Assembly: GCA_964655595.1 (NCBI GenBank)
Contig: CAZZPQ010000001.1
Location: 144-64,143 of the forward strand
Source of the DNA: an uncultured bacterium
GTDB lineage: Bacteria > Deinococcota > Deinococci > Deinococcales > Trueperaceae
Direction of reading: 5' to 3'
Length of the DNA stretch: 64,000 nt
A program made the translations under genes and the position numbers. Shown here one piece after another: positions 1-64,000 of this stretch (the stretch's first letter is position 1; each line of letters begins with the position of its first letter). The notes under the pieces were generated by a model. That model was given only the letters and a program-made list of their open reading frames with translations, made no database searches and was not told where the DNA came from.

Positions 1-1
1 A

Positions 2-370
2 GTAAGCCGCGCTGAACGCTTAGCGCTTTGCTTGCCGTTTAGTATCTACCTCGGCTGGATTACTGTGGCGACTGTCGCCAATACCACGATATTTCTGCTT
101 GACCAGGGTATAACAGGTGGCACATTCGCCACAGCCTGGGCAATTATTGCCATCATTGCCGCCACAGGGATCGGCCTGCTGGTATTGCTGCGCAGACGTG
201 ACATGCCCTACGGACTCGTTTTAGTGTGGGCCCTTATCGGTATTGCGGTAAATCAGTGGGCAATGACCCCTGCGGTAGTGGTGACTGCACTCTTTACAGC
301 AGGACTGCTGCTGACTGTCAGCGGATTCGTCAGGTTTTCGAGCTACCAGTTGGCTAATACGGCTCCGTAG
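2..370 (+). CDS. C-terminal part of a multi-pass membrane protein, open at the left window edge (possibly TspO/MBR-like)
   Basis: The frame is open from nt 2 to the stop at 368-370. The translation is three hydrophobic helices (YLGWITVATVANTTIF, WAIIAIIAATGIGLLVLL, LVLVWALIGIAV). The YLGWITVAT-AN motif recalls long TspO/MBR-type proteins, from memory only. Confidence 0.4.
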   Translation, partial: VSRAERLALCLPFSIYLGWITVATVANTTIFLLDQGITGGTFATAWAIIAIIAATGIGLLVLLRRRDMPYGLVLVWALIGIAVNQWAMTPAVVVTALFTAGLLLTVSGFVRFSSYQLANTAP

Positions 371-857
371 TTTCTTCATAAAGCTGAAACCCTCTGGCCT
401 GATAGTTGCGCAGCGCTGCCGGATGGTCAAGTGTACAGGTGTGCAGCCAAACTCGCTCAGGCCCTAATTCCCAGGCATGCTGGATGGCTGAGGATAAAAG
501 TGCCCCACCAAAACCCTGCCCGATAAAGGCTGGCATCAGCCCGAAGTAAGCGATTTCAACACCCGTTTCAGGTTTGCTCAGTAGTTCGTAATAGCCCACT
601 GGCGCACCACGGTGAAAAGCCCCAAAGGTACAAAGATTCTCCAGATGAACGTAATTATGCCAGTCCTGATCTGTCCAGACAAGCCTGTCTCGCCACCGCC
701 AACCACGCCCTACTTCAACATAAAAATACTTGTTAAAACTGGGGGTGGGCAATTCAACTCTGGAAATGTGCAAATCGGCAGGGACTTCCTTCGCCCGATG
801 TTCCGCGGGTGAAAGCATCTCGAGATAGTAGATGCTTACAGATTGAGGCTCTGACAC
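354..857 (-). CDS. GNAT family N-acetyltransferase
   Basis: 167 aa with a GTG start. It carries the acetyl-CoA binding signature QGFGGALLSSAIQHAWE and a C-terminal NYQARGFQLYEE typical of GNAT folds. Confidence 0.8.
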   Translation of the reverse strand: MSEPQSVSIYYLEMLSPAEHRAKEVPADLHISRVELPTPSFNKYFYVEVGRGWRWRDRLVWTDQDWHNYVHLENLCTFGAFHRGAPVGYYELLSKPETGVEIAYFGLMPAFIGQGFGGALLSSAIQHAWELGPERVWLHTCTLDHPAALRNYQARGFQLYEETTEPY

Positions 858-882
858 AGCTTTACTTTAGCACTCCAGCAAG

Positions 883-957
883 TATTACCGAGCCCGATAC
901 ATTGGTTGAAAATTTGGAAAGCGCTTCCCCGCTTCCTACTCGCCTTGCTCGGGATAA
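883..957 (+). repeat. F1 intergenic repeat, short form (~75 bp)
   Basis: TATTACCGAGCCCGATACATTG...CTTCCTACTCGCCTTGCTCGGGATAA aligns with the 5' two-thirds of the other F1 copies. It lies in a divergent intergenic region. Confidence 0.7.
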
Positions 958-968
958 CTTGAACCTGT

Positions 969-1433: not shown

Positions 1434-1638
1434 ATTCCTATCCATACGTGCTTGTAACCGGTTGTTTTGTGCCAATAGCAGTTATGCTCGAGCCCCTACC
1501 AGGTTTCGGTCTTGAGCAAGACTCGAGCCTTAAAGCCTTCTGGGCTTTAGGACATTTATCCTCAATAGTATCGGCAAATTTTTTGCAGTGACGATTAACG
1601 GCAAATGAAGCCAGTTATCGTGATAGCCTGTTTACGAT

Positions 1639-1878
1639 ATGAGCTGGAGCAATCTGCGATACACAGTGAAGGAAGCTCAATTAAAGGCCCTCGAGGCTGA
1701 GCGAACAGGTATGTGGCATTTGGTCGTGCAGCAGTACATCTATTGTTTAAAGTACGCGCACAAGGTCGGTAACAAGGAAGCAATCAAGTTTTTCGCTGCC
1801 AAACTCAGTCGGGCCTACACGGCTATGGCTATGACTGAAAAGGCCAGTTATTATTCGACCCTGGCAAAGGAGCGCTAG
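1639..1878 (+). CDS. hypothetical small helical protein
   Basis: A 79-aa ORF with an ATG start and no obvious Shine-Dalgarno. The composition is helical and I recognise no family. Confidence 0.3.
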   Translation: MSWSNLRYTVKEAQLKALEAERTGMWHLVVQQYIYCLKYAHKVGNKEAIKFFAAKLSRAYTAMAMTEKASYYSTLAKER

Positions 1879-6631: not shown

Positions 6632-7648
6632 ATGCAGCTCCGTCTGGACCCTTGGGCTACCGAATACAACACCGCCTATCTGGCTGAAGAGGTCAGTCCG
6701 CTTGGCAAGGACAATGTTGATATAGGCGTTGAAACTCAGGCTTGGCAAAAAATCCGACCCCAGAAGCCTGCTGAACTGTACGAGGCTCTGTTATTTCTTG
6801 ATGGTACGCAACGCTCTGAGGCTCGAGTGCTCCTGGAAGACGAGCGCCAGCAGCTTGCTTTTGGCGCTATTGGCAGCTTTGCGGTGGGTGCGGTGAATTG
6901 CTGTCCTCGCGGTAGTCGCCAGGCAAGTTACCTCGAGTTGGCACACCTCAACTTCGACAGTCTTCACCGTATCTGCGTTTTGAGTGGTGGGCACAGCCTG
7001 GAAGCGTTCAGCCTTGCCTCGGATAAACTCCAGCAACTTGGCAAGCTTGACTACCGCATTGTCAGTACCGAAAAGCGCGAAGCGGATGCGGTACTAAGGC
7101 AGATTCAATTTGAGATGCTCAAGGCCGAAGGCCTGCTTGCCTCGCGGCTGTGCGACACATATCGAGAAGCACTCGTTATCAGTGACGGTCCCTTGCCCCG
7201 CAGCGGCTATATTGACAATGTTGTCGGCTATGTCAAGACCATTCATCAGGTTCCCATACCCCAAAGCGAAATGGAACTGGTACGAGCGCTCGAGCAAGGC
7301 GAGCGCTCGCCTTTGTATCTGGTTAGCGCTCAGGATAAAAGTCAGCAGCATTTCGAATGCTTTTTGCGCCTGCGCGATCCCAGGCCCTGGCTTTACAGCC
7401 TGGCTGGTATGATTCGTTTACAGATTTTCGCCAGCAGCCAACCACAAGACAGGCTGGAGACTGCCATCAGCATGGCAGACTGGCTATGTCACATTCTGCC
7501 AGGTTTTGCCAGTCTGCAACATCAGGATCCTCGAGCCCCACAGCAGCTTTTACCGATTCGGGCGCTCGAGTCCGAGCTGCGACGCAAAATGGGTGACGCA
7601 AGGTTGATTCGGCGGCGGATTACTGCCTACCTCTCACGATTCAGCTAA
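6632..7648 (+). CDS. hypothetical protein, weak NurA-like (RNase H-fold nuclease) motif pattern
   Basis: 338 aa. Its ATG is 1 nt after the acylase stop, so it is translationally coupled. The motifs LFLDGTQRSE, LVISDGPL and VVGYVKTIH resemble the DGS / DGxL / sK motifs of NurA, from memory and not verified. Confidence 0.5.
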   Translation: MQLRLDPWATEYNTAYLAEEVSPLGKDNVDIGVETQAWQKIRPQKPAELYEALLFLDGTQRSEARVLLEDERQQLAFGAIGSFAVGAVNCCPRGSRQASYLELAHLNFDSLHRICVLSGGHSLEAFSLASDKLQQLGKLDYRIVSTEKREADAVLRQIQFEMLKAEGLLASRLCDTYREALVISDGPLPRSGYIDNVVGYVKTIHQVPIPQSEMELVRALEQGERSPLYLVSAQDKSQQHFECFLRLRDPRPWLYSLAGMIRLQIFASSQPQDRLETAISMADWLCHILPGFASLQHQDPRAPQQLLPIRALESELRRKMGDARLIRRRITAYLSRFS

Positions 7649-7672: not shown

Positions 7673-9559
7673 CTACTGCACCTGCTCGCGTTGCCCGAAA
7701 CTCTTGACGGTGACAAGCGCAGCATTGCGGTTTTGAATCACGGGGAAGGCTGGCGGTGCCATCCCAAAACGCATCCGAGGATCATAGGTGAAATTACGAC
7801 CATAACCCGACTTTACTATAGGATCGCCACCAGTTCCCGTAAAGGTACCAAAGCCACCATACTGGTTTTGAATAACGCCGCCCAGGAGGTTCACTGAACC
7901 TCGAGGAGATCCGCTGGCAAAGTTTTCAACTGTAACCACTTCACTGCCACTCATCAAGGTAGCATGAATGGCCACGTTATCCGGCGCATTCATCGTTGTA
8001 TCAGCATTGCTATTACCAATAAGCACACTGGCATTCGCCGAGTAAATGCCAAAAATATTATTTGCATTTGGGTTGGGACACACTGAGGCCGTCACAGTGC
8101 CATCAGGGTTGCGGGTCGGTCCCGCTGTGCAAGGGGGAATCTCATAGGTCAAGTCCCCCGTAATGCGAAACTGATCATTACCTGCCACGGTAATCTGGGC
8201 AAAGCTGGCAATCGCTGGTAGAGCGTCAGCTGGATTCAGGCTGGCAGCCGGATTGCGCCCTGGACCCGAGATGCGCTCAATCTCACCTTGTGCAAAAATC
8301 ACCCCATTAAAGCTTGGCTGTTCGACTACCCAGATAGTACCATCCCAGCGCATTAAATCACCGTTGTCTTGATAACGATATCTCTCACAGTTACCTGGCG
8401 CAAGACAGGATTCAATATATTGATATTGCGCGCCTGCAGCAACAGTATTCCCGTCAAGGTCACCTGCCCAGAAAGTCAGGCTGTGCAGATTGGCAGGCAA
8501 AAGCAAACCATTATCTTGCGCCAACTGTTGCTGATCAAAAGCGTTGGTAGGCAGTTCAATGTACTCCTCATTCCAGGTAACATTCGCCATAAACTGTGGG
8601 TTATGAACAACACCATCAAAATTAGTCAGATTGGGGAACATAGGATCTGGCCAGTCAGTCGAAGCGATGAGTTGATCGGAAGCTCCACCTGTTCCATCCG
8701 GCATCCGTCTGAACCGAGCACCTGGTATGAAAGTACCGTCACAACCCGTTATATCAGCTCGAGGGTTGGTACAACCCGCGCTTGTCACCACATCACCAAA
8801 CCAGGGAGTACCATGAAAACTAAAGTGACCATTGGTGTGTACTGGTCCATCGAACAGGGTTCTCTCAGTGAACCAGACCAACCCACCTCCTGGGGCAACA
8901 TGATTATTGGTGAAGAGTGCATACTGGGCAAAGCTGCCACTGCCCGTATCAAAATGAAACTCGCCCTGTAACACAACATTGCGGCGGTAGATGCCTGAGA
9001 CACCCTCCGAAACAAGCACGAAGGGTAAGGCATAAACCTGCGTGTTGATATCACCTCCTGCCTGACGGGGCACACCCTGAACAAACCTGGGGCTTGGCAG
9101 CCTCACTCCACTAGGTAACGTTGTGCCGCAAGCAACTGGGTTCGTGGCATCAAAGTACAAGCGTAGTCTCACCTCACCGCCATTGCCCAAATCAATAGGA
9201 TTGCACAGTGCGTTATTCACAATCGCTTGCAACTGTGTTGCTACAGGTCGCAAAGCCGTAGCCACCGAGTTGCCGGTTGGTGCATTGGCCCCCGAAGAGC
9301 TGGTTCCAAATGACCAGGCACCCGTTTGCAAATTGGCATTGACGATTTGACCTACGGCTTGAGTGAGAGGGATCGAGATAAAAGAATTGCCCAACTGCAC
9401 TCCGCCCCTTGCCAGCATCAGAGACTGGGTGACTGCCAGATTGTCGCGGCTATTTTGCAGGTTGTTGATGGTGCGCATGCTCATCAGCACGATAATACCC
9501 GCCACCACAACCATAAAGGTCAATGCGAGTAGTAGTGCCATACCTTGTTTTAGTTGCAT
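7673..9559 (-). CDS. large pseudopilin-operon protein, PilX N-terminal-like / ComZ-like
   Basis: 628 aa. The N-terminus MQLKQGMALLLALTFMVVVAGIIVLMSMRTINNL resembles the PilX N-terminal domain (no Glu5). It overlaps the upstream pseudopilin gene by 10 nt and is the last gene of the operon. Confidence 0.6.
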   Translation of the reverse strand: MQLKQGMALLLALTFMVVVAGIIVLMSMRTINNLQNSRDNLAVTQSLMLARGGVQLGNSFISIPLTQAVGQIVNANLQTGAWSFGTSSSGANAPTGNSVATALRPVATQLQAIVNNALCNPIDLGNGGEVRLRLYFDATNPVACGTTLPSGVRLPSPRFVQGVPRQAGGDINTQVYALPFVLVSEGVSGIYRRNVVLQGEFHFDTGSGSFAQYALFTNNHVAPGGGLVWFTERTLFDGPVHTNGHFSFHGTPWFGDVVTSAGCTNPRADITGCDGTFIPGARFRRMPDGTGGASDQLIASTDWPDPMFPNLTNFDGVVHNPQFMANVTWNEEYIELPTNAFDQQQLAQDNGLLLPANLHSLTFWAGDLDGNTVAAGAQYQYIESCLAPGNCERYRYQDNGDLMRWDGTIWVVEQPSFNGVIFAQGEIERISGPGRNPAASLNPADALPAIASFAQITVAGNDQFRITGDLTYEIPPCTAGPTRNPDGTVTASVCPNPNANNIFGIYSANASVLIGNSNADTTMNAPDNVAIHATLMSGSEVVTVENFASGSPRGSVNLLGGVIQNQYGGFGTFTGTGGDPIVKSGYGRNFTYDPRMRFGMAPPAFPVIQNRNAALVTVKSFGQREQVQ

Positions 9560-10389: not shown

Positions 10390-10391
10390 GA

Positions 10392-13791: not shown

Positions 13792-13902
13792 TACCGAGCC
13801 CGATAAATTGCTTAAAGATTTCAAAAGCAATCTTCGCTTCCTAACGCTCTGCTCGGGATAAATCATTGGGATAAACCCAATGATTTATCCGGAACTGGTA
13901 TA
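13790..13902 (+). repeat. F1 intergenic repeat, long form
   Basis: A full copy. The hairpin GGATAAATCATTGGG-ATAAA-CCCAATGATTTATCC (13856-13890) carries a compensatory double change relative to 2173-2207. The 5' end overlaps the TAA stop of gene 13066-13791. Confidence 0.85.
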
Positions 13903-16519: not shown

Positions 16520-18310
16520 TCAGGCAGCAACTTCGACCATATCATAGACTTCGATAATGTCACCTTCTTGCACGTTGTCGTAGTTTTGCAGGTTGATACC
16601 ACACTCAAACCCTGTACCCACTTCACGAACATCATCCTTGAAACGGCGGAGTTGTGAGATCGAACCTTTATAGACTTCCTTACCAGCTCGAATCAGGCGC
16701 GCCTTGGCACCACGGCGTATCATTCCATCGGTAACATAAGAACCTGCTATCACGCCAGAGCGGGGTACGCTGATGACCTGACGCACCTGAGCATGACCCA
16801 GTACTTTTTCTTCATACTCCGGCTCAATCTGCCCACGAATCATACGCTGGACATCCTCAATCAGCTCATAGATAATCCGATAAGACTTTAAGGGAATACC
16901 CTGGCGCTCAGCAGCTTTTTTGACACTGCCCGCAGCCGTAACCCCAAAGCTCATGACCGATGCATCAGCGGTACTGGCCAGCAGCAAATCCGATTCGGTC
17001 GGTGCACCCACTTCTGCCAGCATGATGTCGAGGTCGACTTCCTCCACTCCGGCAGATTCCTTAGCCAGTACACCCTTGATGGCCTCGAGCGAACCTTGGG
17101 TATCAGCCCGCAAAATCAGGTTGATTTTGGTCGCCTTGGACTTACCAAAGAGATCTGCCAGCGTCAGGACTTTTTCACTGCTGGTCTCCCGCTCTGAGTC
17201 CTGGCGCAGCGTCTTGCGTTCTGACACCAGTGCCTTGGCAGCCGCTTCAGTTGCTACAGCATCTATGACATCTCCGGCCACTGGCTGCTCACTAAAGCCC
17301 AGAATCCGCACTGGAAAGGAAGGCTCAGCCACAGCGATACGCTGCCCACTGGCATCGGACATAGCCCGCACCTTGGCCCAGATCTCCCCTGAAACAATAT
17401 AATCCCCAACCCGCAGACTGCCTTCCTGGATCAGAATAGTCGCCAGCACACCCGCACGCTTGTCGAGTATGGACTCAATGATAATCCCATGTGCGGGTAC
17501 ATCCTTGGCTGCTCGCACATCTGCCAGTTCAGCCACCAGAGAAATCATCTCGAGCAGATTGTCAATGCCTTTACCGGTCATGGCGCTAATCGGCACCACA
17601 ATCGTGTCACCACCGAAGTCTTCAGGAATCAGCTCGAGCTGCATCAGGTCCTGTTTGACCTTATCAGGATTTGCCTGAGGCAGGTCAGTTTTGTTAATCG
17701 CTACGATAATGGGCACCTTGGCAGCTTTGGCATGGGCTACCGCCTCACGTGTTTGTGGCATGATGCTGTCATCGGCAGCTACCACAATCACGGCGATATC
17801 AGTCGCATTGGCACCACGCTGCCGGATGCTGGTAAAGGCCTCGTGACCTGGAGTATCCAAAAAAGTGATGGGGCCATGCACAGTCTGTGCCTGGTAGGCA
17901 CCGATATGCTGTGTGATGCCACCCGCTTCCTTTTCAGCAACTTTGGTCTTGCGAATATAATCCAGCAGGCTGGTTTTGCCATGGTCGACATGGCCCATCA
18001 CTGTGACCACCGGGGCGCGGCGTGGCGCATCGGCCTGGACTGGTTTTTTAGCAGGCGCTTTCGCTTCGGACTTTTCGTTGGCTGTGGCTGATGGCGGCGC
18101 AACCTGGGGGCTATTCTCCTTAGGTACAAGCGCCACATCTTCGGCCTGCGTATCGAGCACCAGCTGCATCACTGCGTCTGCTGTGTCTGCCTCCAGGGTA
18201 CTCGAGCTACTTTTGTATTCCACACCCATATCATCGAGAATCGCCAAAAGTTCCTTGGATTCTATCCCGATATCCTTGGCAAGCTGATAGATTCTTACCT
18301 TTTCTGACAT
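16520..18310 (-). CDS. infB: translation initiation factor IF-2
   Basis: 596 aa with the GTPase motifs [17 protein letters not shown] and NKTD and the conserved C-terminal domains. It sits downstream of nusA-ylxR. Confidence 0.96.
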
Positions 18311-18594: not shown

Positions 18595-19779
18595 TTATTC
18601 CTCCGAATTGCTTGCTTCCGCTTCACTTTTGGCTTTTTCGGCAGCCGAAAAGAGCGCATCAAAAGCCGCACGTTTTGTTTCGCTCGAGCCGACCGGTGCA
18701 TCCTCGAGCCTGGACGCTGCCGCCTGCAAAGCGGCGTCCAAGTCACTCACCACATCACTGGCATCCAGGTCGATTTTGTAGCCGGTAAGCTTGGCAGCCA
18801 GACGCACGTTCTGCCCACCCTTGCCAATGGCAAGCGAAAGCTGGTCACTGGAAACGACGATTTTGGTCTCCTGTGTGTCGGTATTCACCTCGATGCTGCC
18901 GACCTTGGCAGGTGAGAGGGCGTTGCGAATAAACTCACGCGGATTGGCATCCCACATGATGATATCCACACGCTCCCGCTGGAGTTCACCCGTGACCGCC
19001 TGAATGCGACTGCCGCGATGACCAATGCAGGCGCCAATCGGGTCAACATTGGGGTTGCTACTGGTCACGGCAACTTTAGAGCGCTGGCCAGCTTCACGCG
19101 CCACTGCCTTGATTTCCACCGTGCCATCTTGCACCTCGGGAATCTCCTGGCGCATCAGGAACTCGAGCAACTCCGGTGCAGCGCGGGACACCAGAATACT
19201 GGGGCCACGGCTGCTCTGTTCCACATTCATGACATAGACCTTTACACGCATGCCAACCATGTAACGCTCGCCAGGAATCTGTTCCTTTTGGGGCATGATC
19301 GCCTCGCCGCGCCCTAAATCCACAAAAACGTTGCGTTTATTGTCAGTGCGCGTCACCAGACCAGTCAGCACCTCACCACTGCGGTCTTTGTACTCCTCAA
19401 AAACTATCATGCGCTCAGCTTCGCGGATTTTCTGAGTGATGACCTGCTTGGTGGTCTGCACCGCAATACGGGTAAATTTATCGGGGTCGACTGGAAACTC
19501 CATTTCCATCCCCAGCTCAACCGTATCATCAAGCTCCAACGCTTCTTGCAAAGAGATTTCCTTATCTATATCCTCGATCACTTCGACCACGCGGCGAATA
19601 ACCAGGACTTCCATCTCACCGCTATCAGGATCAATCACCACATCGATCTCTTTACCAGGCTCAACATTACGCTCATAAGCCTGCTCGAGCGATTCCTCAA
19701 AGCTCTGCAGGAGTTGCGCCCGATCAAGATTGCGCTCAGCAGCCAGCTGATTCAGCGCGTCCATAAACTCTTTGTTCAT
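18595..19779 (-). CDS. nusA: transcription termination/antitermination factor NusA
   Basis: 394 aa covering the N-terminal domain, S1 and two KH domains (GACIGHRGSRIQAV, AIGKGGQNVRLAAKLTG). Confidence 0.96.
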   Translation of the reverse strand: MNKEFMDALNQLAAERNLDRAQLLQSFEESLEQAYERNVEPGKEIDVVIDPDSGEMEVLVIRRVVEVIEDIDKEISLQEALELDDTVELGMEMEFPVDPDKFTRIAVQTTKQVITQKIREAERMIVFEEYKDRSGEVLTGLVTRTDNKRNVFVDLGRGEAIMPQKEQIPGERYMVGMRVKVYVMNVEQSSRGPSILVSRAAPELLEFLMRQEIPEVQDGTVEIKAVAREAGQRSKVAVTSSNPNVDPIGACIGHRGSRIQAVTGELQRERVDIIMWDANPREFIRNALSPAKVGSIEVNTDTQETKIVVSSDQLSLAIGKGGQNVRLAAKLTGYKIDLDASDVVSDLDAALQAAASRLEDAPVGSSETKRAAFDALFSAAEKAKSEAEASNSEE

Positions 19780-19845: not shown

Positions 19846-20289
19846 TTATCTAGGCTCCTTAGGCCACTCCGCCAGACGCGCCTGAAGCTCCGCAACAGGA
19901 TAACTGCGCAGTTCCTTATCCACTTCAAAACTCACCATGTCATTTTCCACCTGACGAATGATGCCCTTAAAGCTGTCCTGACCCACCCTGACTTTCGCCA
20001 TCAGACCATGAAATCGCGCAAAGTGCCGCGCTGTACGCAGGGGTCTTTCGGCACCCGGCGACTCCACTTCGAGCTGATAGGCACTGTTAAAAGGATCAAG
20101 GCGATCAAGTTCAAGACCAAATATCTCGGTGGCCAGCGTAACGTCCTCCATAGTGACAGTTTGTTCGTCCAGACGGTCAATACGCAGCAGAACCCGCCGT
20201 TTGCTTCCCTGACCGGAGATTGCCAGCTCGAGTACCTCGTAACCCAGTGGCGCAATCACTGCTTGTGCAGCCTGCTCGAGATTCATCAC
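19846..20289 (-). CDS. rimP: ribosome maturation factor RimP
   Basis: 147 aa. The LEVESPGAERPL motif and the position upstream of nusA support the call. Confidence 0.9.
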   Translation of the reverse strand: MMNLEQAAQAVIAPLGYEVLELAISGQGSKRRVLLRIDRLDEQTVTMEDVTLATEIFGLELDRLDPFNSAYQLEVESPGAERPLRTARHFARFHGLMAKVRVGQDSFKGIIRQVENDMVSFEVDKELRSYPVAELQARLAEWPKEPR

Positions 20290-25199: not shown

Positions 25200-25250
25200 C
25201 TTAATAATTTGAATTTCAGAGGTTGATGCTCCCGTCAGTTCTTCTCGAGT

Positions 25251-34614: not shown

Positions 34615-34694
34615 AGGCTTCATGCGAAAGTATCAACTGAGCAATTTTAAGGTCGATTAGAATCGCTATTAATCCGGACTTTTGCAAAAGGGCT
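34615..34694 (+). repeat. F2 intergenic repeat
   Basis: AGGCTTCATGCGAAAGTATCAA...CCGGACTTTTGCAAAAGGGCT. It lies 5 nt upstream of an F1 copy. Confidence 0.8.
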
Positions 34695-34699
34695 ATTTT

Positions 34700-34799
34700 T
34701 ATACCGAGCCTGCTAAATTGCTTAAAGATTTGAAAAGCACTTTCCCACTTCCTAACGCCCTGCTCGGGATAAACCAAACAATCTATCCGAAACTGGTAA
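34700..34799 (+). repeat. F1 intergenic repeat, long form with decayed hairpin
   Basis: TATACCGAGCCTGCTAAATTGCTTAAAGATTTGAAAAGC...CTGCTCGGGATAAACCAAACAATCTATCCGAAACTGGTAA. Confidence 0.75.
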
Positions 34800-34870
34800 C
34801 GCGTCCTGCGTCAAAGACTCTTAAAGAAACATCACACCCGGGAATAACAAGCCCTGATATCATCAATGGT

Positions 34871-36421
34871 ATGTATAAACTATTGCCTGCCATGATAACC
34901 ATAGGCTTAAGTTTTTTTTCGGTTCTTTCATGTAATAATGCAACGTCAATCAGCGATTCGCGAGACATCAAACTGACTCCTGAATCTGCTGGTGTGAAAG
35001 CCAATTCCGTGCTGTTTTTGGAAGCGCCCATACCTAAAGATGTATATAGCCAGACCGGTTGGCAATCAAGTTGTGGTCACATTATTGGCCCCAGCACTTA
35101 TAAGGTTGCCTACCTGGCACCCGATACGCCAGGAACCTGTAGTATTGAGGCAAAAAGTAGGCTTGAGGGAAGTAACACCATTGTTTCAACAGCGACCATA
35201 AATGTAATTGCCGAATCCATAGACTGGCATAGTCGACTTAGCAGTACACCAACTGACAATTACTCTGGTAGTGGAATCGTCGTGGACTCGGCGGGTAACA
35301 CATATATAACAGGCTCTCTATCCAAAATAAGCAATGAAAACACAACAGGTTACCCTGATGTATATGATGTGTCTTTGGCAAAACTTGACCCCTTTGGCGA
35401 AATCGCCTGGATACGTCAGTTTGGCACAGCCTCAAGGGATTATAGTGCGGATATAGCCATTGATAGTAGTGGAAACAGCTATGTCGCTGGTTACTCATCT
35501 ATGAGCGCTGGGCAAGACCCTGATGATGGGTTCGAAGGTGGCTTTGTTGCAAAATATGATGCAAATGGTGAACAACAGTGGTTTAGTCAGGTTGGCTCAC
35601 GAACTGAAATGTCTGAATTGTGGAAAATGGCGATTGATCAGGAAGGAAGTATTATTGTCACAGGGAGCACCTCTTACCAGAAAAACGAAGGTTGGAGCTA
35701 TCAAACCACTGGTGTTATCTCCAAGCTTGACAAAAATGGCAATCGTTTATGGTTAAAAAGGTTAGAGTTAGAGGCTGATGATGAGTATCTATTTCTAGGG
35801 GATTTGGTGACAGACTCCGCAGGGTCGATCGTGGTACTTGGTTTCATATCAACATCAGATGGAAGAGATAGTTTTCTCGCCAAGTTTGATACCCATGGTG
35901 AAGAGGTCTGGTTTCATCAGTTGGATATGAGCATTTCTAATGAAGATGAAGTTGGTGGTTTGGCTATCACGCCTGATGACAGTATCATACTTGTAGGCAA
36001 CAATTATAAGAAGACTGAAGATTGGACTAAGTCTTCGGGATCATCCTATGTAAGCAAGCACAGAGCTGACGGAAGTGAAGAATGGCTCCGACGCTATAAC
36101 AGGAATGTGGACTTGGAAGCCAACAGTGTGACCGTGGATAACGCTGGCAATATTACGGTAACCGGAAACGCAAACTGGTACCTCTGGTTAGGTGATGATG
36201 AAGATGATTTCGACAAGAGAAACCACGGAACCTTTTTAGCCCAGTTTGACTCGAGTGGAGACCTTCGGGCATTCCGCCAGTTTTTTCCAAGCATCAGTAC
36301 CCTGGGGCATACTACTGATAACCATGGCAATATCTACATAACCAGCAGTGTCAGAGGTGCAGTTAATCCTAAAACGCGTACTTACTTAAACGATGTTTAT
36401 GTGTTTAAGGTCAAGCCATAA
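34871..36421 (+). CDS. lipoprotein with SBBP-type beta-propeller repeats
   Basis: The start is trimmed to ATG 34871 (MYKLLPAMITIGLSFFSVLS-C lipobox), because the ORF-track N-terminus runs through the F1 repeat. There are at least 7 repeats of D..GN.Y.TG (DSAGNTYITGS, DSSGNSYVAGY, DQEGSIIVTGS, DNAGNITVTGN, DNHGNIYITSS). Confidence 0.7.
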   Translation: MYKLLPAMITIGLSFFSVLSCNNATSISDSRDIKLTPESAGVKANSVLFLEAPIPKDVYSQTGWQSSCGHIIGPSTYKVAYLAPDTPGTCSIEAKSRLEGSNTIVSTATINVIAESIDWHSRLSSTPTDNYSGSGIVVDSAGNTYITGSLSKISNENTTGYPDVYDVSLAKLDPFGEIAWIRQFGTASRDYSADIAIDSSGNSYVAGYSSMSAGQDPDDGFEGGFVAKYDANGEQQWFSQVGSRTEMSELWKMAIDQEGSIIVTGSTSYQKNEGWSYQTTGVISKLDKNGNRLWLKRLELEADDEYLFLGDLVTDSAGSIVVLGFISTSDGRDSFLAKFDTHGEEVWFHQLDMSISNEDEVGGLAITPDDSIILVGNNYKKTEDWTKSSGSSYVSKHRADGSEEWLRRYNRNVDLEANSVTVDNAGNITVTGNANWYLWLGDDEDDFDKRNHGTFLAQFDSSGDLRAFRQFFPSISTLGHTTDNHGNIYITSSVRGAVNPKTRTYLNDVYVFKVKP

Positions 36422-37826: not shown

Positions 37827-37845
37827 TTATCTGGAACTGGTATTA
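37827..37845 (+). repeat. isolated F1 3'-tail fragment
   Basis: TTATCTGGAACTGGTATTA matches the last ~19 nt of F1. Its final TTA is the TAA stop (minus strand) of gene 37843-39153. Confidence 0.4.
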
Positions 37846-39153
37846 GGGAAGGATTTGTCCGCGAATCTCACCCGCAGGATTGGCCGCCGAGTGCAGATTG
37901 ATGTACAAAAGACCATCATTAAAGTAGCCAAGCTGCGTATCATCCAATGTAAATACACCAGCAAAAGTTTGAGCGTCATTGTCAAAATCAAAGACAAAGA
38001 GAACGCCTGCGTTAGCATCAGCGGCGGCAGGGCCGTGAATGTGCGCCCCGGGGCCTGCAATTTCAAAGCCAGAGAAACTACCATCAACCACCAGTTTTTT
38101 GCCATAGAGTGTCACAGTAGCACTACCTGTGGAAGTCGTTGCGACAGGCGGAACCTCATTGGCCCCTGAAAGCGACACATCAAGGCTGGTGGGTGGCAGA
38201 AGTACTTGGTCAATAATGTGAATAATGCCATTTGACGCTTCAATATCTGGCATTGTTACAGTTGCACTACCGTTCAGCACAACACTTCCATCAATGACTT
38301 CATAATAGATACTGTTGCCGGCGAAAGCAGTATCAACCGTTGCAGGTGCACTGGCAATCACATCGGCGGCGGACAAGGCTGAGCCAGCGACCACATGATA
38401 AAGCAGGACGTTGACAATCATTTCAGCACCCAGTTTATCAATCAGGCCAGGCAGGTCTTCGACTTCCTGAGCTTCCAGCAAAGCCGCAAAGGCTGCATTC
38501 GTTGGAGCGAAGACGGTAAAGGGACCTGTACCTTCCAGAGTTTCCACCAGATCAGAGGCGACCAGGGCGGCTACTAATGTGCTGAGAACAGCAGTGTCCT
38601 GAGCGATTTCAACAATCGTACCAGGTTCTGGGTCTGGATCGGGGTCTGGGCTGGGGGGCAATAGCACCGCGTTGATGATGTGTACAACACCGTTTGACGC
38701 TGCAACATCGGCAGTTGTTACAGTAGCAGTCTCATTCAGCACGACCTGACCATCCACCACAGCAAAGGCAATACTTGCGCCTTCAAGCAGCGTCGGCGTT
38801 GTGCCGGGCGCAGCCGCGATCACATCTGCTGCCAAAAGTTTACCGGGTGCTACATGGTACTTGAGGATATCCGCCAGATCGTCACTTGCCAGCAGCTCTT
38901 CTTTGGTCAGACCGAGTGCCTCAAGCGCTGCCGCAAAAGCTGCGTTGGTTGGAGCAAAGACGGTAAAGGGACCTTCGCCACCTAACGCGCCCACCAGCTC
39001 AGCAGCCTGCAGGGCTTCAACCAGTATGCTTAAATCTGCTGTTCCCTGAGCAACTTCAGCAATTGTGCCAGGTTCATCTGGCTTTGGTGTACCACAAGCA
39101 GCCAGCAGTAGCACCAGTGCTGGCAGTAACAGCCACGTCAAAAACTTTTTCAT
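37843..39153 (-). CDS. lipoprotein with two fasciclin (FAS1) domains and a C-terminal CHRD domain
   Basis: The start is trimmed to MKKFLTWLLLPALVLLLAAC (lipobox), with GGGAGG upstream. The FAS1 motifs TVFAPTNAAFAA and NGVVHIINAVLLPP occur twice, linked by PSPDPDPDPEPG. The C-terminus LSGANEVPP...AHIHGPA...INLHSAANPAGEIRGQI is CHRD-like. Confidence 0.8.
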   Translation of the reverse strand: MKKFLTWLLLPALVLLLAACGTPKPDEPGTIAEVAQGTADLSILVEALQAAELVGALGGEGPFTVFAPTNAAFAAALEALGLTKEELLASDDLADILKYHVAPGKLLAADVIAAAPGTTPTLLEGASIAFAVVDGQVVLNETATVTTADVAASNGVVHIINAVLLPPSPDPDPDPEPGTIVEIAQDTAVLSTLVAALVASDLVETLEGTGPFTVFAPTNAAFAALLEAQEVEDLPGLIDKLGAEMIVNVLLYHVVAGSALSAADVIASAPATVDTAFAGNSIYYEVIDGSVVLNGSATVTMPDIEASNGIIHIIDQVLLPPTSLDVSLSGANEVPPVATTSTGSATVTLYGKKLVVDGSFSGFEIAGPGAHIHGPAAADANAGVLFVFDFDNDAQTFAGVFTLDDTQLGYFNDGLLYINLHSAANPAGEIRGQILP

Positions 39154-39272
39154 TAAACTTGCCTCCCATTTCTTGGTATTCCTACAGTCATACAGTATGT
39201 GATTTTTCACATGCTCAACTATAGGCATGCCTACAGTTTGCCTTTCACAAAGTCACAAAGGCACGAAATCAC

Positions 39273-39950: not shown

Positions 39951-40182
39951 AATCTGCCCTGACCTAAAAGTAAAAAGCGACCATCACCGGGCTCGAGTGA
40001 TAGGTGATGGTCTGTGGATGTGTGTGTGGGAGGTGATATGAGTTCTGGACTCGAGCCCTCTTTTGTAAGGGTAAACTACCCTTATGCTGAGAATAGCAGC
40101 CACTATCTTACAAAAAAATGACACCACGCTTGGCTTAGGATCAGTTTACTATGACCAACAGAACCCGGCAGGTTGACTGGCC

Positions 40183-40497
40183 GTGCCTGAAGCATCCTTC
40201 AAAGCCCTGGTTCTGTATTTTGTTGCCGCCATACCAGCCGGAAAAGTGGCAACTTATGGGCAGATTGCAGCTCTGGCTGGCTCACCTCGAGCAGCCAGGC
40301 AGGTTGGCGGCATTCTGCGCTACACGCAGGACAGTGACCTGCCCTGGCAGCGCGTCATCAACGCCAGCGGACGACTCAGCACCTACAAAGTAGGGACGGG
40401 AGAATTGCAAAAAGCGCTGCTTCAGTCCGAAGGCGTGGTCTTTGACGACGGGCGTGTTGACCTGGCAAGTTACAGATGGCAACCCGACTCGGTATGA
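40183..40497 (+). CDS. alkyltransferase-like protein (ATL; MGMT DNA-binding domain lacking the acceptor Cys)
   Basis: 104 aa with a GTG start. VAAIPAGKVATYGQIAALAGSPRAARQVGGIL...LPWQRVINASG closely parallels E. coli YbaZ as I remember it. The PCHRV motif is replaced by PWQRV. Confidence 0.85.
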   Translation: MPEASFKALVLYFVAAIPAGKVATYGQIAALAGSPRAARQVGGILRYTQDSDLPWQRVINASGRLSTYKVGTGELQKALLQSEGVVFDDGRVDLASYRWQPDSV

Positions 40498-48937: not shown

Positions 48938-49017
48938 AGACCTCTTGCAAAAGTCCAGATTGATAGCGATTCTAATCGGCCTTAAGATTGCCCAGTTGAT
49001 ACTTTCGCAAGAAGTCT
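48938..49017 (-). repeat. F2 intergenic repeat (inverted orientation)
   Basis: Its reverse complement is near-identical to 16154-16233. Confidence 0.8.
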
Positions 49018-49046
49018 ATTTCATGTTCAGCGATTTTACCAAAGGC

Positions 49047-50771: not shown

Positions 50772-50915
50772 ATTTGCTCCCTTTATGATTTGCTAGAAGG
50801 CATTGTGATCACTCTGTGCGATAAGCACATCAGCCATGTGGCAAGGTAACTGCCAGTAACTGTTGGCTCGAGTATTCTCCATATCCCTTACATAATTTAC
50901 CTCCCTTTTTCCAGG

Positions 50916-55084: not shown

Positions 55085-55355
55085 CCACAACTCCCAGAAT
55101 CGTAGTATATATCCAGACTATCCTAGTCATCCAACCCGTTATGCGCCAAGCGGCTTTATTGCTATAGCCGGTTTGAACCTCGCTTAGAGTGCTTTAGTCT
55201 ATGTTAAGTTGCCTGAACAATGCAAGTCCTGGTGGTTCTGCAGTTTTACAACACGACCTTATTACACCGTAAAATAGATGTTGATACCCATATTTCGCTT
55301 AAAACTCCATACTTGGTCAAGAATCCAAGTATCAGAACTAATCTTACGGTGTACT

Positions 55356-55430
55356 TATACCGAGCCCGATATATTAATTATAGATTTGAAGAGCAGTGCC
55401 CTGCTTCCCACTTGCCCTGCTCGGGATAAA
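55356..55430 (+). repeat. F1 intergenic repeat, short form
   Basis: TATACCGAGCCCGATATATTAATTATAGATTTGAAGAGCAGTGCCCTGCTTCCCACTTGCCCTGCTCGGGATAAA. Confidence 0.8.
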
Positions 55431-56228: not shown

Positions 56229-56259
56229 ATCCTCCTAACTGCCGTATGAACTGAGTGTT

Positions 56260-56375
56260 ATACGGAGCCCGATAAATTGATTATAGATTTGAAAAGCAGT
56301 TCCTCGCTTCCTACTCGCTCTGCTCGGGATAAATCCTTGGGATAAACCCAAGGATTTATCCCAAACTGGTATTAC
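56260..56375 (+). repeat. F1 intergenic repeat, long form
   Basis: Nearly identical to 2106-2220, including the perfect hairpin GGATAAATCCTTGGG-ATAAA-CCCAAGGATTTATCC and the tail AACTGGTATTA. Confidence 0.85.
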
Positions 56376-56550
56376 CTACCATTGTCATGACATTTGCGAA
56401 GTATTAGGGTGAAGCGTAGCGACAACATAAGCTCGACTTGATTACTTTTCATAAGTACCTTTGGCGAAATTGCCCCGCGCCTATGGCGCTCAAAGTGACG
56501 GGATTGCTTCGGCTGTTATGCCAAGACAGCTCGCATTCCATTACCTCCCT

Positions 56551-61069: not shown

Positions 61070-61088
61070 CTAACCTCGAGGTTCTCAC

Positions 61089-62102
61089 ATGAAAACCAAG
61101 ACCTTCCTGTTATTTGTCGGCCCCTCACTCATCATGATGCTGCTTTTTATCGCTGGACCTCTGGCAACTGTCTTTTATCAGAGCTTCCTGCAAACCCAGA
61201 GTGTCTTTGAAACCGTTGAGCAACAGAGATGTGACCCCTTTGGCTGCACCACAGCAAACGTAAGCATTCCAAAGCTTGATGATAGTGGTCGAGCAATTCG
61301 CGAAACCAGATGGGTCGGCTGGGCTAACTACCGCAATATCCTCAACTGGCAGAATGTACAAAAAGCGTTTTCGGCTTCGGGTCAGGGCTTTAGTGAAGTC
61401 AATACCATTGCTTTCTGGAAAGCCCTGCGCTTTACCATTATGTTCACACTTATTACCCTGCCACTGATTATCCTGCTCGGTTTGGTACTCGCTTTTTGCG
61501 TTAACTCCATCATTCAAAGCCTGCGCGGGTCGGTTATTTTTGTCACGCTTCTGCCCTTTGTCATCACGCCAGTGATCGGCGCTTTATCTATCCGCTGGCT
61601 CTTTGTCAGCGACGGTATCTTGGCAGCACAACTCCGGCACTTCACTGGCCCGGGCTTTTCCATGTTTGCGCAGGGCTGGACTATTGAGCTGCTGATGTAC
61701 TTTTACCGCGTCTGGCATGTTGCGCCTTTTGCTTTCGTCATTTTTTATGCCGCCTTGCAAACCCTGGAGGCTGAGCAGGTAGAAGCGGCCCGTATCGATG
61801 GCGCTAATCGCTGGCAGGTGATTCGCAACATCATCCTGCCACACTTAAGTCCACTGATCGTGTTTGTAACCCTGATTCATCTGATGGACGCCTACCGCGT
61901 TTTTGATGAAGTTATCGGCTTTCGCTCAGAGGCTTTTGTCATTTCCTTGCAGTGGCTGACCTATGATTTTCTGATTCCCGATGATACCGGTAACCGCTCG
62001 ATTGGTCGCGCCTCTGCCTCGGCAGTGCTGACAATGATTGGCATTGCCCTGTTACTGATTGCCCCCCTCAGAAATACCTGGAAAGAACAAACTCAGAGGT
62101 AA
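61089..62102 (+). CDS. carbohydrate ABC transporter permease
   Basis: 337 aa with 6 TM helices and the EAA loop EAARIDGANRWQVIRNIILP. Confidence 0.88.
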   Translation: MKTKTFLLFVGPSLIMMLLFIAGPLATVFYQSFLQTQSVFETVEQQRCDPFGCTTANVSIPKLDDSGRAIRETRWVGWANYRNILNWQNVQKAFSASGQGFSEVNTIAFWKALRFTIMFTLITLPLIILLGLVLAFCVNSIIQSLRGSVIFVTLLPFVITPVIGALSIRWLFVSDGILAAQLRHFTGPGFSMFAQGWTIELLMYFYRVWHVAPFAFVIFYAALQTLEAEQVEAARIDGANRWQVIRNIILPHLSPLIVFVTLIHLMDAYRVFDEVIGFRSEAFVISLQWLTYDFLIPDDTGNRSIGRASASAVLTMIGIALLLIAPLRNTWKEQTQR

Positions 62103-62105
62103 GCC

Positions 62106-63242
62106 ATGCAATCCAAACTCTTCAGACTCCCACTCGGCTTGAAACTAACGACCTGGCTGATACTGCTCATCTGGATTATCATTGCTCTTTTTCCCATGTT
62201 GTGGATTGTGGTGATGTCTTTCAAGTTGCCAGTCGATGCCTTTCATCCCAACCCGCTGAATGTCCTCCTGGGACCACGCACCAATGAGGCAGTTGGCGGC
62301 CTGTCGCTTATCAGTATTGCCCTGACGCTTATAACAGCCTATGTCCTGCTGCAGATCTTTGCTAGTAGAGAAAGCCTGCTGGAGCGCATGGCATCGGTGC
62401 GCAGCGGTGTTAGTCCGGCACTGGTGATAGCGTTTTATCTGGGCTTTTTTCTGTTGGCAGCCTTCTCTTTTGTCGTGCTGTTGCCGCTTGTGTCACGCCT
62501 GCTCAGTTCAGCCGTTTCGGGCCTTCCTGTGCTGAACGCTTTGAGCGAGCCCGTTCTGGGCCTGACCACCCAACACTATCAGCGCGTATGGCTGACCGAC
62601 AGGTTCTATCAGTATTTTTTCAATACCCTGCTGGTCACCACAGGTGTCGTAGCCATTTCACTGACCATCGGTACGCTGGCAGCCTATGGGCTGGCGCGTA
62701 CCCGTAATAACTGGGTCTTCTGGATTCTAATAGCAGCACTTGTGTTTCGCGCCCTGCCCCATTCCACCCTGGTATCGGGCTACCTGCCGCTGTTTATCGA
62801 CTGGGGGCTTTATGGCAAGCACATTGCTGTGATCATCGTTCTGGTTGCCATCAATCAACCTTTTACCATCTGGATGCTCAGATCTTTTTTCATGAACATA
62901 CCGCCTGCGCTGGATGAGGCTGCACTGGTCGATGGTTGCAACCGGTTCCAGGCCTTCCGCTATGTGATCATGCCGATAATGTGGCCGGGCGTCATCACCA
63001 CAGGTTTGTTTTCCTTTCTGCTTGCCTACAATGACTATCTGGTGTCTGCTTTGCTACTCGATGGTGATACGCGCACCATGGTTCCAGCCATTATGGCCTA
63101 CTTTAACCGTGAAACCACCTTGACCGATCAGCTCGAGGCCATTGCCGCTGCAGCGTCTATAACCTTCCCCATTTTCATCCTGGTACTGATTTTTCAGAAG
63201 CAGATTGTTTCGGGTCTGACGCAAGGGGCGGTGAAAGGCTAG
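62106..63242 (+). CDS. carbohydrate ABC transporter permease (with an extra ~90-aa insertion after TM1)
   Basis: 378 aa with the EAA loop DEAALVDGCNRFQAFRYVIMP. It is longer than the usual ~280 aa. Confidence 0.85.
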   Translation: MQSKLFRLPLGLKLTTWLILLIWIIIALFPMLWIVVMSFKLPVDAFHPNPLNVLLGPRTNEAVGGLSLISIALTLITAYVLLQIFASRESLLERMASVRSGVSPALVIAFYLGFFLLAAFSFVVLLPLVSRLLSSAVSGLPVLNALSEPVLGLTTQHYQRVWLTDRFYQYFFNTLLVTTGVVAISLTIGTLAAYGLARTRNNWVFWILIAALVFRALPHSTLVSGYLPLFIDWGLYGKHIAVIIVLVAINQPFTIWMLRSFFMNIPPALDEAALVDGCNRFQAFRYVIMPIMWPGVITTGLFSFLLAYNDYLVSALLLDGDTRTMVPAIMAYFNRETTLTDQLEAIAAAASITFPIFILVLIFQKQIVSGLTQGAVKG

Positions 63243-63297
63243 GAACAAGTGCATCCTTGAAACTGTAAGTATGCTCTTTGACCATCAAAGGAACCCA

Positions 63298-64000
63298 ATG
63301 AATATCCATAACCAGAATAAAAACCTCATCCTTAAGCTCCGTGCAGCACTTTATGATCTTGAAGTGAACAAGCTTGAGTCTCAACTTGCCAGTGTTTTTG
63401 CCCCTGATGCCAAACTACGGCTGGCTTTTCCCTTCGGAGACATTGAGGGCCCTGCGGCTCTGTTTAGCAAGGTTTACAGACCCCTCATCCACGCCGTTCC
63501 TGATTTAGAAAGACGTGATTATATCGTCATGGCAGGTCGAGGTGAAGACAATGACTTAGCAGGTAATTGGGTAGGCTGCGCCGGTTTTTACACCGGGGTG
63601 TTTGAAAAACCCTGGCTGGACATCCCAGCAACGCGCCACCCCATCAGCATACGATTTCATGAATTTTTTCGAATCGATGACAATCAGATCATCGAAATGC
63701 AGGCACTCTGGGATATCCCTGATGTCATGATGCAAGCGCACGCCTGGCCAATGAGCCCCAGCCTGGGTATCGACTGGCTGGTACCTGGTCCTGCCACCCA
63801 GGATGGCATAATCACTGAAGCCTTTGATGACAGCCAGGCAAAAGCCTCTCGCAAGCTGGTCATGGATATGCTCATCGGTTTACAGAAACATGCTGAACAT
63901 GGCGCTGAGGCGATGGGTTTAGAGCAGTACTGGCATCCACAAATGTTCTGGTATGGTCCGGCTGGCATCGGCACCAATCGACGCATTGCTGGTTTTAGGA
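63298..64000 (+). CDS. NTF2-like / SnoaL-like domain protein, 3' end beyond the window (not in the ORF track)
   Basis: My own translation from ATG 63298 is MNIHNQNKNLILKLRAALYDLEVNKLESQLASVFAPDAKLRLAFPFGDIEG...WYGPAGIGTNRRIAGFR. The frame is open to nt 64000. It looks like a paralogue-type partner of 57866-58867. Confidence 0.6.
   Translation, partial: MNIHNQNKNLILKLRAALYDLEVNKLESQLASVFAPDAKLRLAFPFGDIEGPAALFSKVYRPLIHAVPDLERRDYIVMAGRGEDNDLAGNWVGCAGFYTGVFEKPWLDIPATRHPISIRFHEFFRIDDNQIIEMQALWDIPDVMMQAHAWPMSPSLGIDWLVPGPATQDGIITEAFDDSQAKASRKLVMDMLIGLQKHAEHGAEAMGLEQYWHPQMFWYGPAGIGTNRRIAGFR

Follow-up and report, generated by a model that had tools for sequence, protein, structure and literature searches.

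The closest described systems to the one reported here are the highly iterated palindromes (HIPs) of cyanobacteria. After some three decades of work on HIP1 (GCGATCGC) there is still no agreement on what it does, partly because the word is all but restricted to a single phylum. HIP1 and the alternate HIPs are short GC-rich palindromes found about once per 0.5-1 kb in all coding frames and in non-coding DNA, lineage-wide and beyond what codon usage predicts. In cyanobacteria every alternate HIP is accompanied by a methyltransferase for its own sequence (PMC4390886). The abundance of HIP1 varies together with DNA-uptake genes, and methylated HIP1 lifts natural transformation more than 100-fold in Synechococcus PCC 7002. 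Other systems show part of this pattern. The uptake signal sequences (USS) of Pasteurellaceae and DNA uptake sequences (DUS) of Neisseriaceae accumulate by drive to a density near 1/kb, lie inside genes and affect peptide composition, and very-short-patch (VSP) repair by Dcm/Vsr in E. coli (CCWGG) creates a word excess through sequence-specific repair of a methylation-site neighbour. Here we describe a 64,000-bp stretch of DNA (the window; contig CAZZPQ010000001.1, GC 52.4%) from an uncultured bacterium of the Trueperaceae (Deinococcota), in which the palindromic hexamer CTCGAG is hyper-abundant. A full-text search of the literature found no report of CTCGAG hyper-abundance.

An exact count gave 113 copies of CTCGAG, where 17.0 are expected from base composition (observed/expected ratio, O/E, 6.66). 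This amounts to 1.77 sites/kb or one per 566 bp over the window, and to one per 480 bp in nt 1-48000, which hold 100 of the sites. An earlier note on this DNA, made by reading the letters, had arrived at about 113 copies, one per ~570 bp overall and ~480 bp in nt 1-48000, against about 16 expected, and these figures were accurate. CTCGAG ranks first of 4096 hexamers both by count and by O/E, and no hexamer of like composition is equally frequent: the 180 such words have a mean count of 20 and a median of 16, the next after CTCGAG being CTGGCA (75) and two words that overlap CTCGAG itself. Under a maximal-order Markov model the O/E is 1.47, low because most of the constituent pentamers belong to the hexamer (113 of 147 CTCGA and 113 of 140 TCGAG), and its z score of 4.1 is nevertheless the highest of all hexamers.

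The same note held that the flanking bases are not conserved and that the unit is the bare hexamer. The second statement stands, while the first needs qualification, since G occupies position -1 in 50% of sites and C position +1 in 44%; beyond +/-1 the flanks are flat. The commonest octamer of the window is GCTCGAGC, with 24 copies. The 7-mer and 8-mer Markov O/E values around CTCGAG are 0.95-1.00, and the flanks therefore add no information. This excludes GCTCGAGC as the true unit, and likewise an asymmetric core of 9-12 bp of the USS/DUS type. A degenerate AvaI-type unit (CYCGRG) was ruled out by CCCGGG, at an O/E of 0.39, and by CCCGAG and CTCGGG, both under expectation. TCGA was ruled out as well, with 267 copies against 248 expected and 42% of them within CTCGAG. 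HIP1 proper, with its CGATCG/GATC methylation in cyanobacteria, does not apply to a host in the Deinococcota in which CGATCG is under-represented (3 copies, O/E 0.18). The usual pattern of restriction avoidance, the opposite of that of CTCGAG, is seen in other 6-bp palindromes of the window: ACTAGT (0 copies), TACGTA (1), CCTAGG (2) and, with 3 copies each, GGATCC, CGATCG, GACGTC, GAATTC, TCTAGA and CATATG (O/E 0-0.2).

Codon usage was modelled by shuffling synonymous codons within each gene, which keeps both the protein sequence and the codon usage, on a map of 59 genes (90% coding) corrected by Pfam hits and by the gene calls of an independent assembly. Coding sequences contain 104 CTCGAG sites against 19.8 in the shuffle (5.3-fold, z = 22), and the next independent words, which contain TGCCA or TGGCA, reach z ~8. 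Simple codon bias thus fails to predict the word, as the note had supposed. Its further claim of an excess in several frames and in non-coding DNA also held. In phase 0 (CTC-GAG, Leu-Glu) we observed 78 sites against 16-17 expected (4.7-fold, Poisson p 3e-28), in phase 1 (xCT-CGA-Gxx) 11 against 1.2-1.4 (8.8-fold, p 1e-7), in phase 2 (xxC-TCG-AGx) 15 against 2.1-2.2 (7.3-fold, p 1e-8), and in intergenic DNA 9 against 1.0-1.3 (~7.5-fold, p 5e-6). The excess accordingly persists once Leu-Glu codons are modelled, and so does the intergenic excess. Only 17% of the window's Leu codons are CTC and 51% of its Glu codons are GAG, yet 74-78 of the ~160 Leu-Glu dipeptides (47%) are written CTCGAG, with CTCGAA used 4 times. 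Where the protein permits the word, 47%, 15% and 11% of positions are occupied in phases 0, 1 and 2. Because the fold-excess is similar in four compartments with different constraints, these results point to a force that acts on the nucleic acid sequence and not on translation; the word being a palindrome, an RNA-level reading of the excess is formally conceivable.

Two other word families stood out in the same counts. AGCGCT is a further over-represented palindrome (50 copies, O/E 2.95); relative to the synonymous shuffle it is raised 2.1-2.8-fold in phases 1 and 2 and 1.2-fold in frame (z 4.9), far more weakly than CTCGAG. Words with TGGCA or TGCCA (CTGGCA 75, TGGCAG 74, TTGCCA, TGCCAG) lie ~2-2.7-fold over the shuffle in phases 1 and 2 (z 9-12), which is possibly a general GC-dinucleotide context effect (GC O/E 1.28).

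The translation factor IF-2 encoded in the window is 100% identical to a protein on stromatolite-metagenome contigs, and its named matches at 70-76% identity are Truepera/Trueperaceae, with Deinococcus at 56-60%. The organism is a Trueperaceae-like member of the Deinococcota from a stromatolite. Other samples yielded two further, independent assemblies of it; both match the window at 99.9% identity and carry the same CTCGAG sites, and an assembly artefact is therefore excluded. Relatives were compared over ~20-kb loci around infB, so that any genome-wide statement rests on the 64 kb and on ~20 kb from each of six relatives. In these six close relatives (L088, L089, L171, L003, L086 and L085; IF-2 75-82% identical, GC 0.46-0.61) we found 1.4-2.7 sites/kb, an out-of-frame O/E of 3.5-10 and a Leu-Glu odds ratio of 1.2-17, the corresponding values for the window (GC 0.52) being 1.77, 7.2 and 11.5. 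CTCGAG was among the top five hexamers in all six. From 46 to 61% GC its density stays at about the same level against a roughly ten-fold shift in expectation, and the relative of lowest GC (L088, 46%) shows the strongest relative excess, with the odds ratio of 17. More distant Trueperaceae metagenome-assembled genomes (MAGs; L087, L172 and L173; IF-2 71-72% identical, GC 0.65-0.70) have 1.0-1.8 sites/kb, an out-of-frame O/E of 1.2-2.6 and an odds ratio of 1.1-2.5; their excess is small. The two Deinococcus loci (D. arenicola, L005, and D. piscis, L006; ~20 kb each, GC 0.60-0.63) contain 0 and 1 sites (0-0.05 sites/kb), against 3-4 predicted from codon usage and 6-7 from base composition, with an out-of-frame O/E of 0 and an odds ratio of 0.2-0.3. 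They avoid CTCGAG, the opposite of what the window's lineage does in the same phylum. The CTCGAG excess is a lineage trait of related genomes with different GC.

The control panel consisted mostly of unrelated bacteria, taken from a genome-collection scan with IF-2 alignment (universal peptide patterns), and was extended by 50 metagenome contigs from a penicillin amidase scan, relatives of at most 59% identity. In 71 unrelated loci CTCGAG had a median mononucleotide O/E of 0.25, which is the usual avoidance and bears out the note's remark that restriction-type palindromes are normally avoided. Control loci reached an O/E of 3-6 only at GC >=0.60, and CTCGAG there ranked 33 or lower by O/E. In the 50 metagenome contigs the median ratio of observed to shuffled counts was 0.96 and the highest 2.6, and CTCGAG was in the top five hexamers of none. 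CTCGAG is also the target of XhoI/PaeR7I-type restriction-modification systems, and as such is normally avoided, as in the Deinococcus loci and most controls; it is the commonest hexamer of the window, which rules out reading it as a restriction-modification target avoided in its host. The exact hexamer is raised about 5-9-fold by a DNA-level force in all three phases and in intergenic DNA, and this is specific to the lineage.

Sites were also compared between orthologous genes. Nucleotide identity of infB across the clade genomes is only 68-73%, and several sites in infB, rimP and nusA are nonetheless common to most of the genomes compared (Table 1). Between L003 and L089, which are 75.6% identical in nucleotides and close to saturated at synonymous sites (codon identity 50% at conserved residues), CTCGAG at conserved Leu-Glu was kept in 24 of 33 instances (73%). 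The corresponding figures were 28% over all conserved dipeptides and 17% for Leu-Glu written in other ways, and CTC was conserved in 71% of cases inside CTCGAG versus 41% outside. At strain level, none of the 24 and 4 differences found at 99.9% identity touches a CTCGAG site, but only 0.3 were expected to, a number too small to be informative. The note had suggested looking in orthologs for sites created by synonymous change. Among the 18 differences in site content between two close relatives, 7 come with an amino-acid change, and the replacements seen between relatives include I/V/M/F to L. In ortholog alignments the CTCGAG of one genome often faces Ile-Glu, Val-Glu, Met-Glu or Phe-Glu in the others.

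The proteins carry a corresponding imprint. Leu-Glu dipeptides exceed expectation by a factor of 1.26 in the window and of 1.22 in the clade (449 counted against 370 expected), and have an O/E of 0.99 in 51 control loci that hold the same infB neighbourhood (Mann-Whitney p = 5e-4), while Glu-Leu and Ile/Val-Glu are not elevated. By a rough accounting, ~10 of the Leu-Glu sites of the window would be due to chance, ~33 would have been recruited from other Leu-Glu spellings and ~32 would lie in new Leu-Glu dipeptides. The force behind CTCGAG is strong enough to recruit about half of the Leu-Glu dipeptides and to create extra ones via conservative amino-acid changes, which shows that a preference for a word in the DNA can alter the dipeptide composition of proteins to a measurable extent.

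These properties place CTCGAG with the HIPs, as the earlier note had proposed by analogy with HIP1. It is a palindrome at about 1 per kb or more, far over what composition or codon usage predicts, in all frames and in non-coding DNA, and shared by a lineage. Its retention at orthologous positions, higher than that of its codons elsewhere, resembles the result for HIP1 (PMC5861425), although re-creation at an equilibrium occupancy would account for it equally well. CTCGAG differs from HIP1 in being a hexamer and not an octamer, in its sequence and in its phylum (Deinococcota versus cyanobacteria), in a fold-excess of ~5-9 against the 15-300 reported for HIP1, and in the clear Leu-Glu imprint that could be measured here. 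HIP1 has a reported chromosomal periodicity at 10-90 kb, and none was detectable for CTCGAG in 64 kb, a window too short for it. Highly iterated palindromes are already known; what is new is the word, its shorter length, the phylum and the measured dipeptide imprint. The observation is solid and, for a restriction-type palindrome, surprising, although its fold-excess is modest next to that of HIP1. It provides a second, independent natural system in which the explanations offered for HIPs (methyltransferase-linked drive, transformation tag, structural selection) can be compared, and one that is graded phylogenetically: among relatives with GC contents of 46-66% the signal is strong in some, absent in others and replaced by avoidance in still others. 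On the practical side, the density of CTCGAG sharply marks the lineage for binning and taxonomy, and its DNA would give unusual results when digested with XhoI or cloned by means of XhoI sites.

Our preferred reading, to which we give a probability of roughly 45%, is that CTCGAG is a HIP-like, methylation-linked highly iterated palindrome of a sub-lineage of Deinococcota and functionally the counterpart of HIP1. The word would be recognized by a DNA methyltransferase specific for CTCGAG that has no partner nuclease and probably forms N6-methyladenine (m6A; CTCGm6AG), as in Marinithermus and Meiothermus, and sites would accumulate through a methylation-linked process. One candidate process is preferential uptake or recombination of self-marked DNA in natural transformation, as reported for methylated HIP1; the other is a methyl-directed repair bias that fixes site-creating and reverts site-destroying mutations, which is Elhai's model for HIPs. 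A point mutation would give rise to a new site wherever a single change is enough to complete the word, the site would then persist, and genes of shorter residence or atypical composition would carry fewer of them. Enzymes of the proposed kind are on record in the phylum: M.Mhy14884I of Marinithermus hydrothermalis and M.Mch9957IV of Meiothermus chliarophilus are Type II m6A CTCGAG methyltransferases with no nuclease partner listed, documented by single-molecule real-time (SMRT) methylomes in which 94.6% and 94.1% of sites, respectively, are methylated (PMC4752239). Nocardia has a conserved orphan CTCGAG methyltransferase, and Halorubrum an enzyme that forms 5-methylcytosine (m5C) in the same word. 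These orphan enzymes thus share the word with our lineage, and two of the hosts share its phylum; the difference is that clusters of the motif near dnaA in Nocardiaceae are reported, not genome-wide hyper-abundance (Blow et al. 2016). When a database was searched with M.TaqI as seed, its sequence having been confirmed in PDB 1AQJ, all hits were TaqI-type orthologues (from Thermus, Anaerolineae and Armatimonadota), and none could be assigned to the clade.

Genes of atypical composition contain few sites. Those with a GC content at third codon positions (GC3) below 0.52 write 2 of 19 Leu-Glu dipeptides as CTCGAG, against 76 of 148 elsewhere (Fisher p = 0.001), and have 0.6 versus 2.0 sites/kb. 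Sites that build up slowly the longer a gene has resided in the genome would give this pattern, and so would a conflict with other constraints on codons. The surface- or secreted-protein genes at 34682-36421 and 37843-39754 (beta-propeller, fasciclin/CHRD, SPW) combine GC3 values of 0.41-0.49 with a near absence of CTCGAG. Copies of the intergenic repeats flank them, and they may have been recently acquired or be under different codon constraints. The fasciclin gene contains an internal 158-nt duplication (38471-38628 and 38918-39075).

Several points weigh against a methylation-linked palindrome. None of the 59 genes of the window encodes a DNA methyltransferase, a nuclease or a Vsr-like protein. 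We know of no direct mutational effect of m6A, and a methyl-linked drive therefore needs an additional repair or uptake component; Deinococcota are not known to have MutH/Dam-type methyl-directed repair, and natural transformation in Thermus is described as sequence-independent. Neither regular spacing nor clustering of CTCGAG was found in the 64 kb. The gaps are exponential (coefficient of variation 0.94-0.96; Kolmogorov-Smirnov p = 0.88 against the exponential) and reach 2.3 kb, pairs less than 20 bp apart occur at the chance rate, and consecutive 4-kb bins hold 6, 8, 9, 10, 8, 9, 7, 9, 4, 7, 12, 11, 2, 3, 6 and 2 sites; with Poisson spacing of this kind, nothing indicates that selection maintains even coverage. 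Retention between L003 and L089 is accounted for by an equilibrium occupancy of 50-64% without site-level selection, and since re-creation explains it equally well, it does not separate selection from drive. Some unrelated GC-rich bacteria have an in-frame CTC-GAG odds ratio of 2-4, and in one Solirubrobacterales MAG (L056, CAVYFE010000016.1; 21.5 kb, GC 0.70) 28 of 37 Leu-Glu dipeptides are CTCGAG, with an odds ratio of 8, and out-of-frame sites are in two-fold excess. Actinomycetota, or other groups, may therefore show the phenomenon in weaker form. Nocardia, with its orphan CTCGAG methyltransferase, also belongs to the Actinomycetota.

A narrower form of the methylation reading, which seems to us unlikely, would make CTCGAG a methylation-dependent self-DNA tag in natural transformation or recombination, an independently evolved analogue of HIP1 and USS held at a set density of ~1.7/kb whatever the GC content and rewriting proteins through excess Leu-Glu.

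We regard as doubtful, too, a sequence-specific repair or mutation drive that involves neither function nor methylation, in which a mismatch enzyme, of very-short-patch or other type, would favour CTCGAG when resolving mismatches of near-cognate hexamers, the word accumulating as a neutral by-product. Such a drive is consistent with an excess of like size in every compartment, with the Poisson spacing, with sites created even at the cost of amino-acid changes and with the few sites of atypical genes, as a slow cumulative process predicts. Most one-step neighbours of CTCGAG stand at 0.4-0.7 of the shuffle expectation, which also suits it, but this depletion is partly forced by the null, an imperfect one in that the shuffle leaves the Leu-Glu dipeptides fixed in number. 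Repair of T:G to C:G at the inner C by a Vsr-like enzyme would deplete the transition neighbours CTTGAG and CTCAAG; these, the T-containing deamination products, number 39 against 31.8 expected (1.23), which argues against Vsr-type repair at that position. At the outer C, TTCGAG/CTCGAA (0.54) are no more strongly depleted than GTCGAG/CTCGAC (0.60). Word biases from VSP repair are modest, and the CTCGAG excess is far larger. In addition, the odds ratio drops as GC rises and the density stays about constant, which resembles a set-point rather than a constant bias, and no candidate enzyme was seen in the window.

It is quite improbable that CTCGAG serves, independently of methylation, as a signal for uptake or recombination in the manner of the Pasteurellaceae USS or the Neisseria DUS. 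Here the competence machinery would prefer DNA containing CTCGAG, and biased uptake followed by recombination would spread the word. A density of ~1 per 0.6 kb, occurrence in all frames and a dipeptide imprint are hallmarks reported for USS, self DNA has ~7-30 times more CTCGAG per kb than typical foreign DNA, and the phylum includes naturally competent genera. Known uptake signals, however, are non-palindromic words of 9-12 bp recognized by a competence receptor, a 6-bp palindrome offers little specificity, and we know of no uptake specificity in Deinococcota. The window does contain a minus-strand cluster at 7673-11344 of three prepilin-type genes (with the N-terminal methylation motif) followed by a gene for a 628-aa DUF4900 protein. 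Its arrangement recalls minor-pilin and competence pilin loci and is not diagnostic of uptake; its proteins had no sequence match to solved structures, competence pilins included, or to specific NCBIfam models.

We consider it very doubtful that CTCGAG is the binding site of an abundant DNA-binding protein (a nucleoid-associated, chromosome-structuring or segregation factor) whose density is kept by selection. A palindrome suits a dimeric binder, and a density of 1.4-2.7/kb that holds despite the ten-fold change in expectation would be explained. The Poisson spacing, the gaps of up to 2.3 kb, the chance rate of pairs 10-20 bp apart and the lack of an extended flanking consensus all speak against it, and no candidate protein was seen in the window. 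Finally, a translational preference for the codon pair CTC-GAG, or a relic of a GC-rich ancestor favouring CTC and GAG, is effectively excluded: 78 of the 113 sites are in-frame Leu-Glu, several unrelated GC-rich genomes have raised CTC-GAG odds ratios and the more distant Trueperaceae MAGs are GC-rich, but out-of-frame (26 against 3.3) and intergenic sites (9 against 1.2) are enriched as strongly as in-frame ones, the highest odds ratio belongs to the relative of lowest GC, and CTC conservation at saturated synonymous sites depends on the motif.

All 113 sites are listed in Table 1 by their start coordinates; CTCGAG being palindromic, they have no strand. Of the positions given in the earlier note, one (1486) actually starts at 1487 and all others hold, including 3351 in folD and 39992 in the loop of a hairpin. 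Both Leu-Glu dipeptides it had pointed out in the acylase (5239 and 5935) are indeed CTC-GAG, as are three of the six in the open reading frame (ORF) 6632-7648, and 6822 and 7530 are both in phase 1. The intergenic sites are not carried by a repeat family, since the intergenic repeats of the window hold CTCGGG and not CTCGAG; sites 1487, 1522 and 1690 lie outside the repeat copy that ends the gap in which they stand.

Table 1. Positions of CTCGAG sites and other features in the 64,000-bp window.
Feature	Position	Strand	Remarks
CTCGAG sites, part 1	819, 1487, 1522, 1690, 2728, 3351, 5239, 5935, 6822, 6932, 7289, 7530, 7565, 7900, 8758, 9673, 10029, 10476, 10868, 11069, 11632, 11812, 11919, 12052, 12805, 13360, 13483, 14574, 14745, 15349, 15508, 15604, 15700, 17084, 17549, 17633, 18201, 18683, 18703, 19162, 19684		exact count
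CTCGAG sites, part 2	20227, 20275, 21050, 21206, 21381, 21393, 22294, 22836, 23251, 24784, 24949, 25244, 25448, 26798, 26966, 27125, 28437, 29198, 29513, 30131, 30749, 31049, 31069, 31440, 31817, 32611, 32660, 32729, 34136, 36250, 36598, 37061, 37597, 37675, 37711, 39992		exact count
CTCGAG sites, part 3	40050, 40286, 41117, 41351, 41780, 41981, 42281, 42291, 42840, 43109, 43792, 43918, 44599, 45186, 45387, 45516, 46051, 46196, 46648, 46831, 47335, 47747, 47927, 49224, 50867, 52015, 54391, 54689, 56045, 56998, 57604, 58188, 58844, 58897, 61075, 63132		exact count
Three intergenic sites (1487, 1522, 1690)	1487..1695		within 784-bp gap 1434-2217
Phase-1 site (xCT-CGA-Gxx) in ORF 6632-7648	6822..6827	+	second phase-1 site at 7530
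In-frame Leu-Glu site in infB	17549..17554	-	common to 5/6 clade genomes (column 843)
Phase-2 site (xxC-TCG-AGx, Ser-Ser) in infB	18201..18206	-	same aligned position (column 104) in 5/6 clade genomes
Phase-2 site in nusA	18683		common to 3/5 genomes
In-frame Leu-Glu site in nusA	19162..19167	-	common to 3/5 genomes
In-frame Leu-Glu site in rimP	20227..20232	-	common to 4/5 genomes (rimP column 57)
Intergenic site between major facilitator superfamily (MFS) transporter and arginine decarboxylase genes	25244..25249		
Atypical gene, beta-propeller repeats	34682..36421	+	GC 0.44, GC3 0.41; 1 CTCGAG; 0/5 Leu-Glu written CTCGAG
Fasciclin/CHRD gene	37843..39228	-	GC3 0.45; no CTCGAG; 0/4 Leu-Glu written CTCGAG
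Intergenic hairpin GACCATCACC / GGTGATGGTC, 10-bp stem	39979..40012		CTCGAG 39992-39997 in loop; sequence read directly
Sites 40050 and 40286, upstream of M20 peptidase gene	40050..40291		intergenic on gene map; 40286 could lie within an N-terminal extension of the gene
Intergenic site	50867..50872		
Intergenic site between ATP-binding cassette (ABC) solute-binding protein and permease genes	61075..61080		
Repeat family 1, copies	877-958, 2099-2218, 13783-13901, 16370-16495, 27476-27522, 34693-34774, 39871-39952, 47422-47551, 48775-48904, 55349-55430, 56252-56381		16370-16495 inverted; 27476-27522 partial
Repeat family 2, copies	16153-16237, 34615-34700, 48932-49018		intergenic

The window consists of housekeeping DNA, including folD, rimP-nusA-infB, hisD, genes for arginine decarboxylase, a P-type ATPase, transaldolase and ABC transporters, and the prepilin-type cluster; it gave no tRNA and no Rfam matches. 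Two families of intergenic repeats were found. Family 1 (~120-130 nt, at least 10 copies, no Rfam match) resembles miniature inverted-repeat transposable elements or repetitive extragenic palindromes (MITE/REP-like), and its 3' part is a hairpin (GGATAAATCnTTGGG-ATAAA-CCCAAnGATTTATCC). Its word GGGATAAA occurs 17 times against 1.25 expected, and the CTCGGG that it holds is one letter off CTCGAG. Family 2 (~85 nt, 87-95% identity) occurs in mixed orientation and adjoins copies of family 1.

In the loci of the more distant MAGs and of one close relative, we note differences in dnaB. The gene is intein-free in L173, and inteins with LAGLIDADG homing-endonuclease domains are present in L087 (two, 18434-21875), L088 (9668-12025) and L172 (18234-20816).

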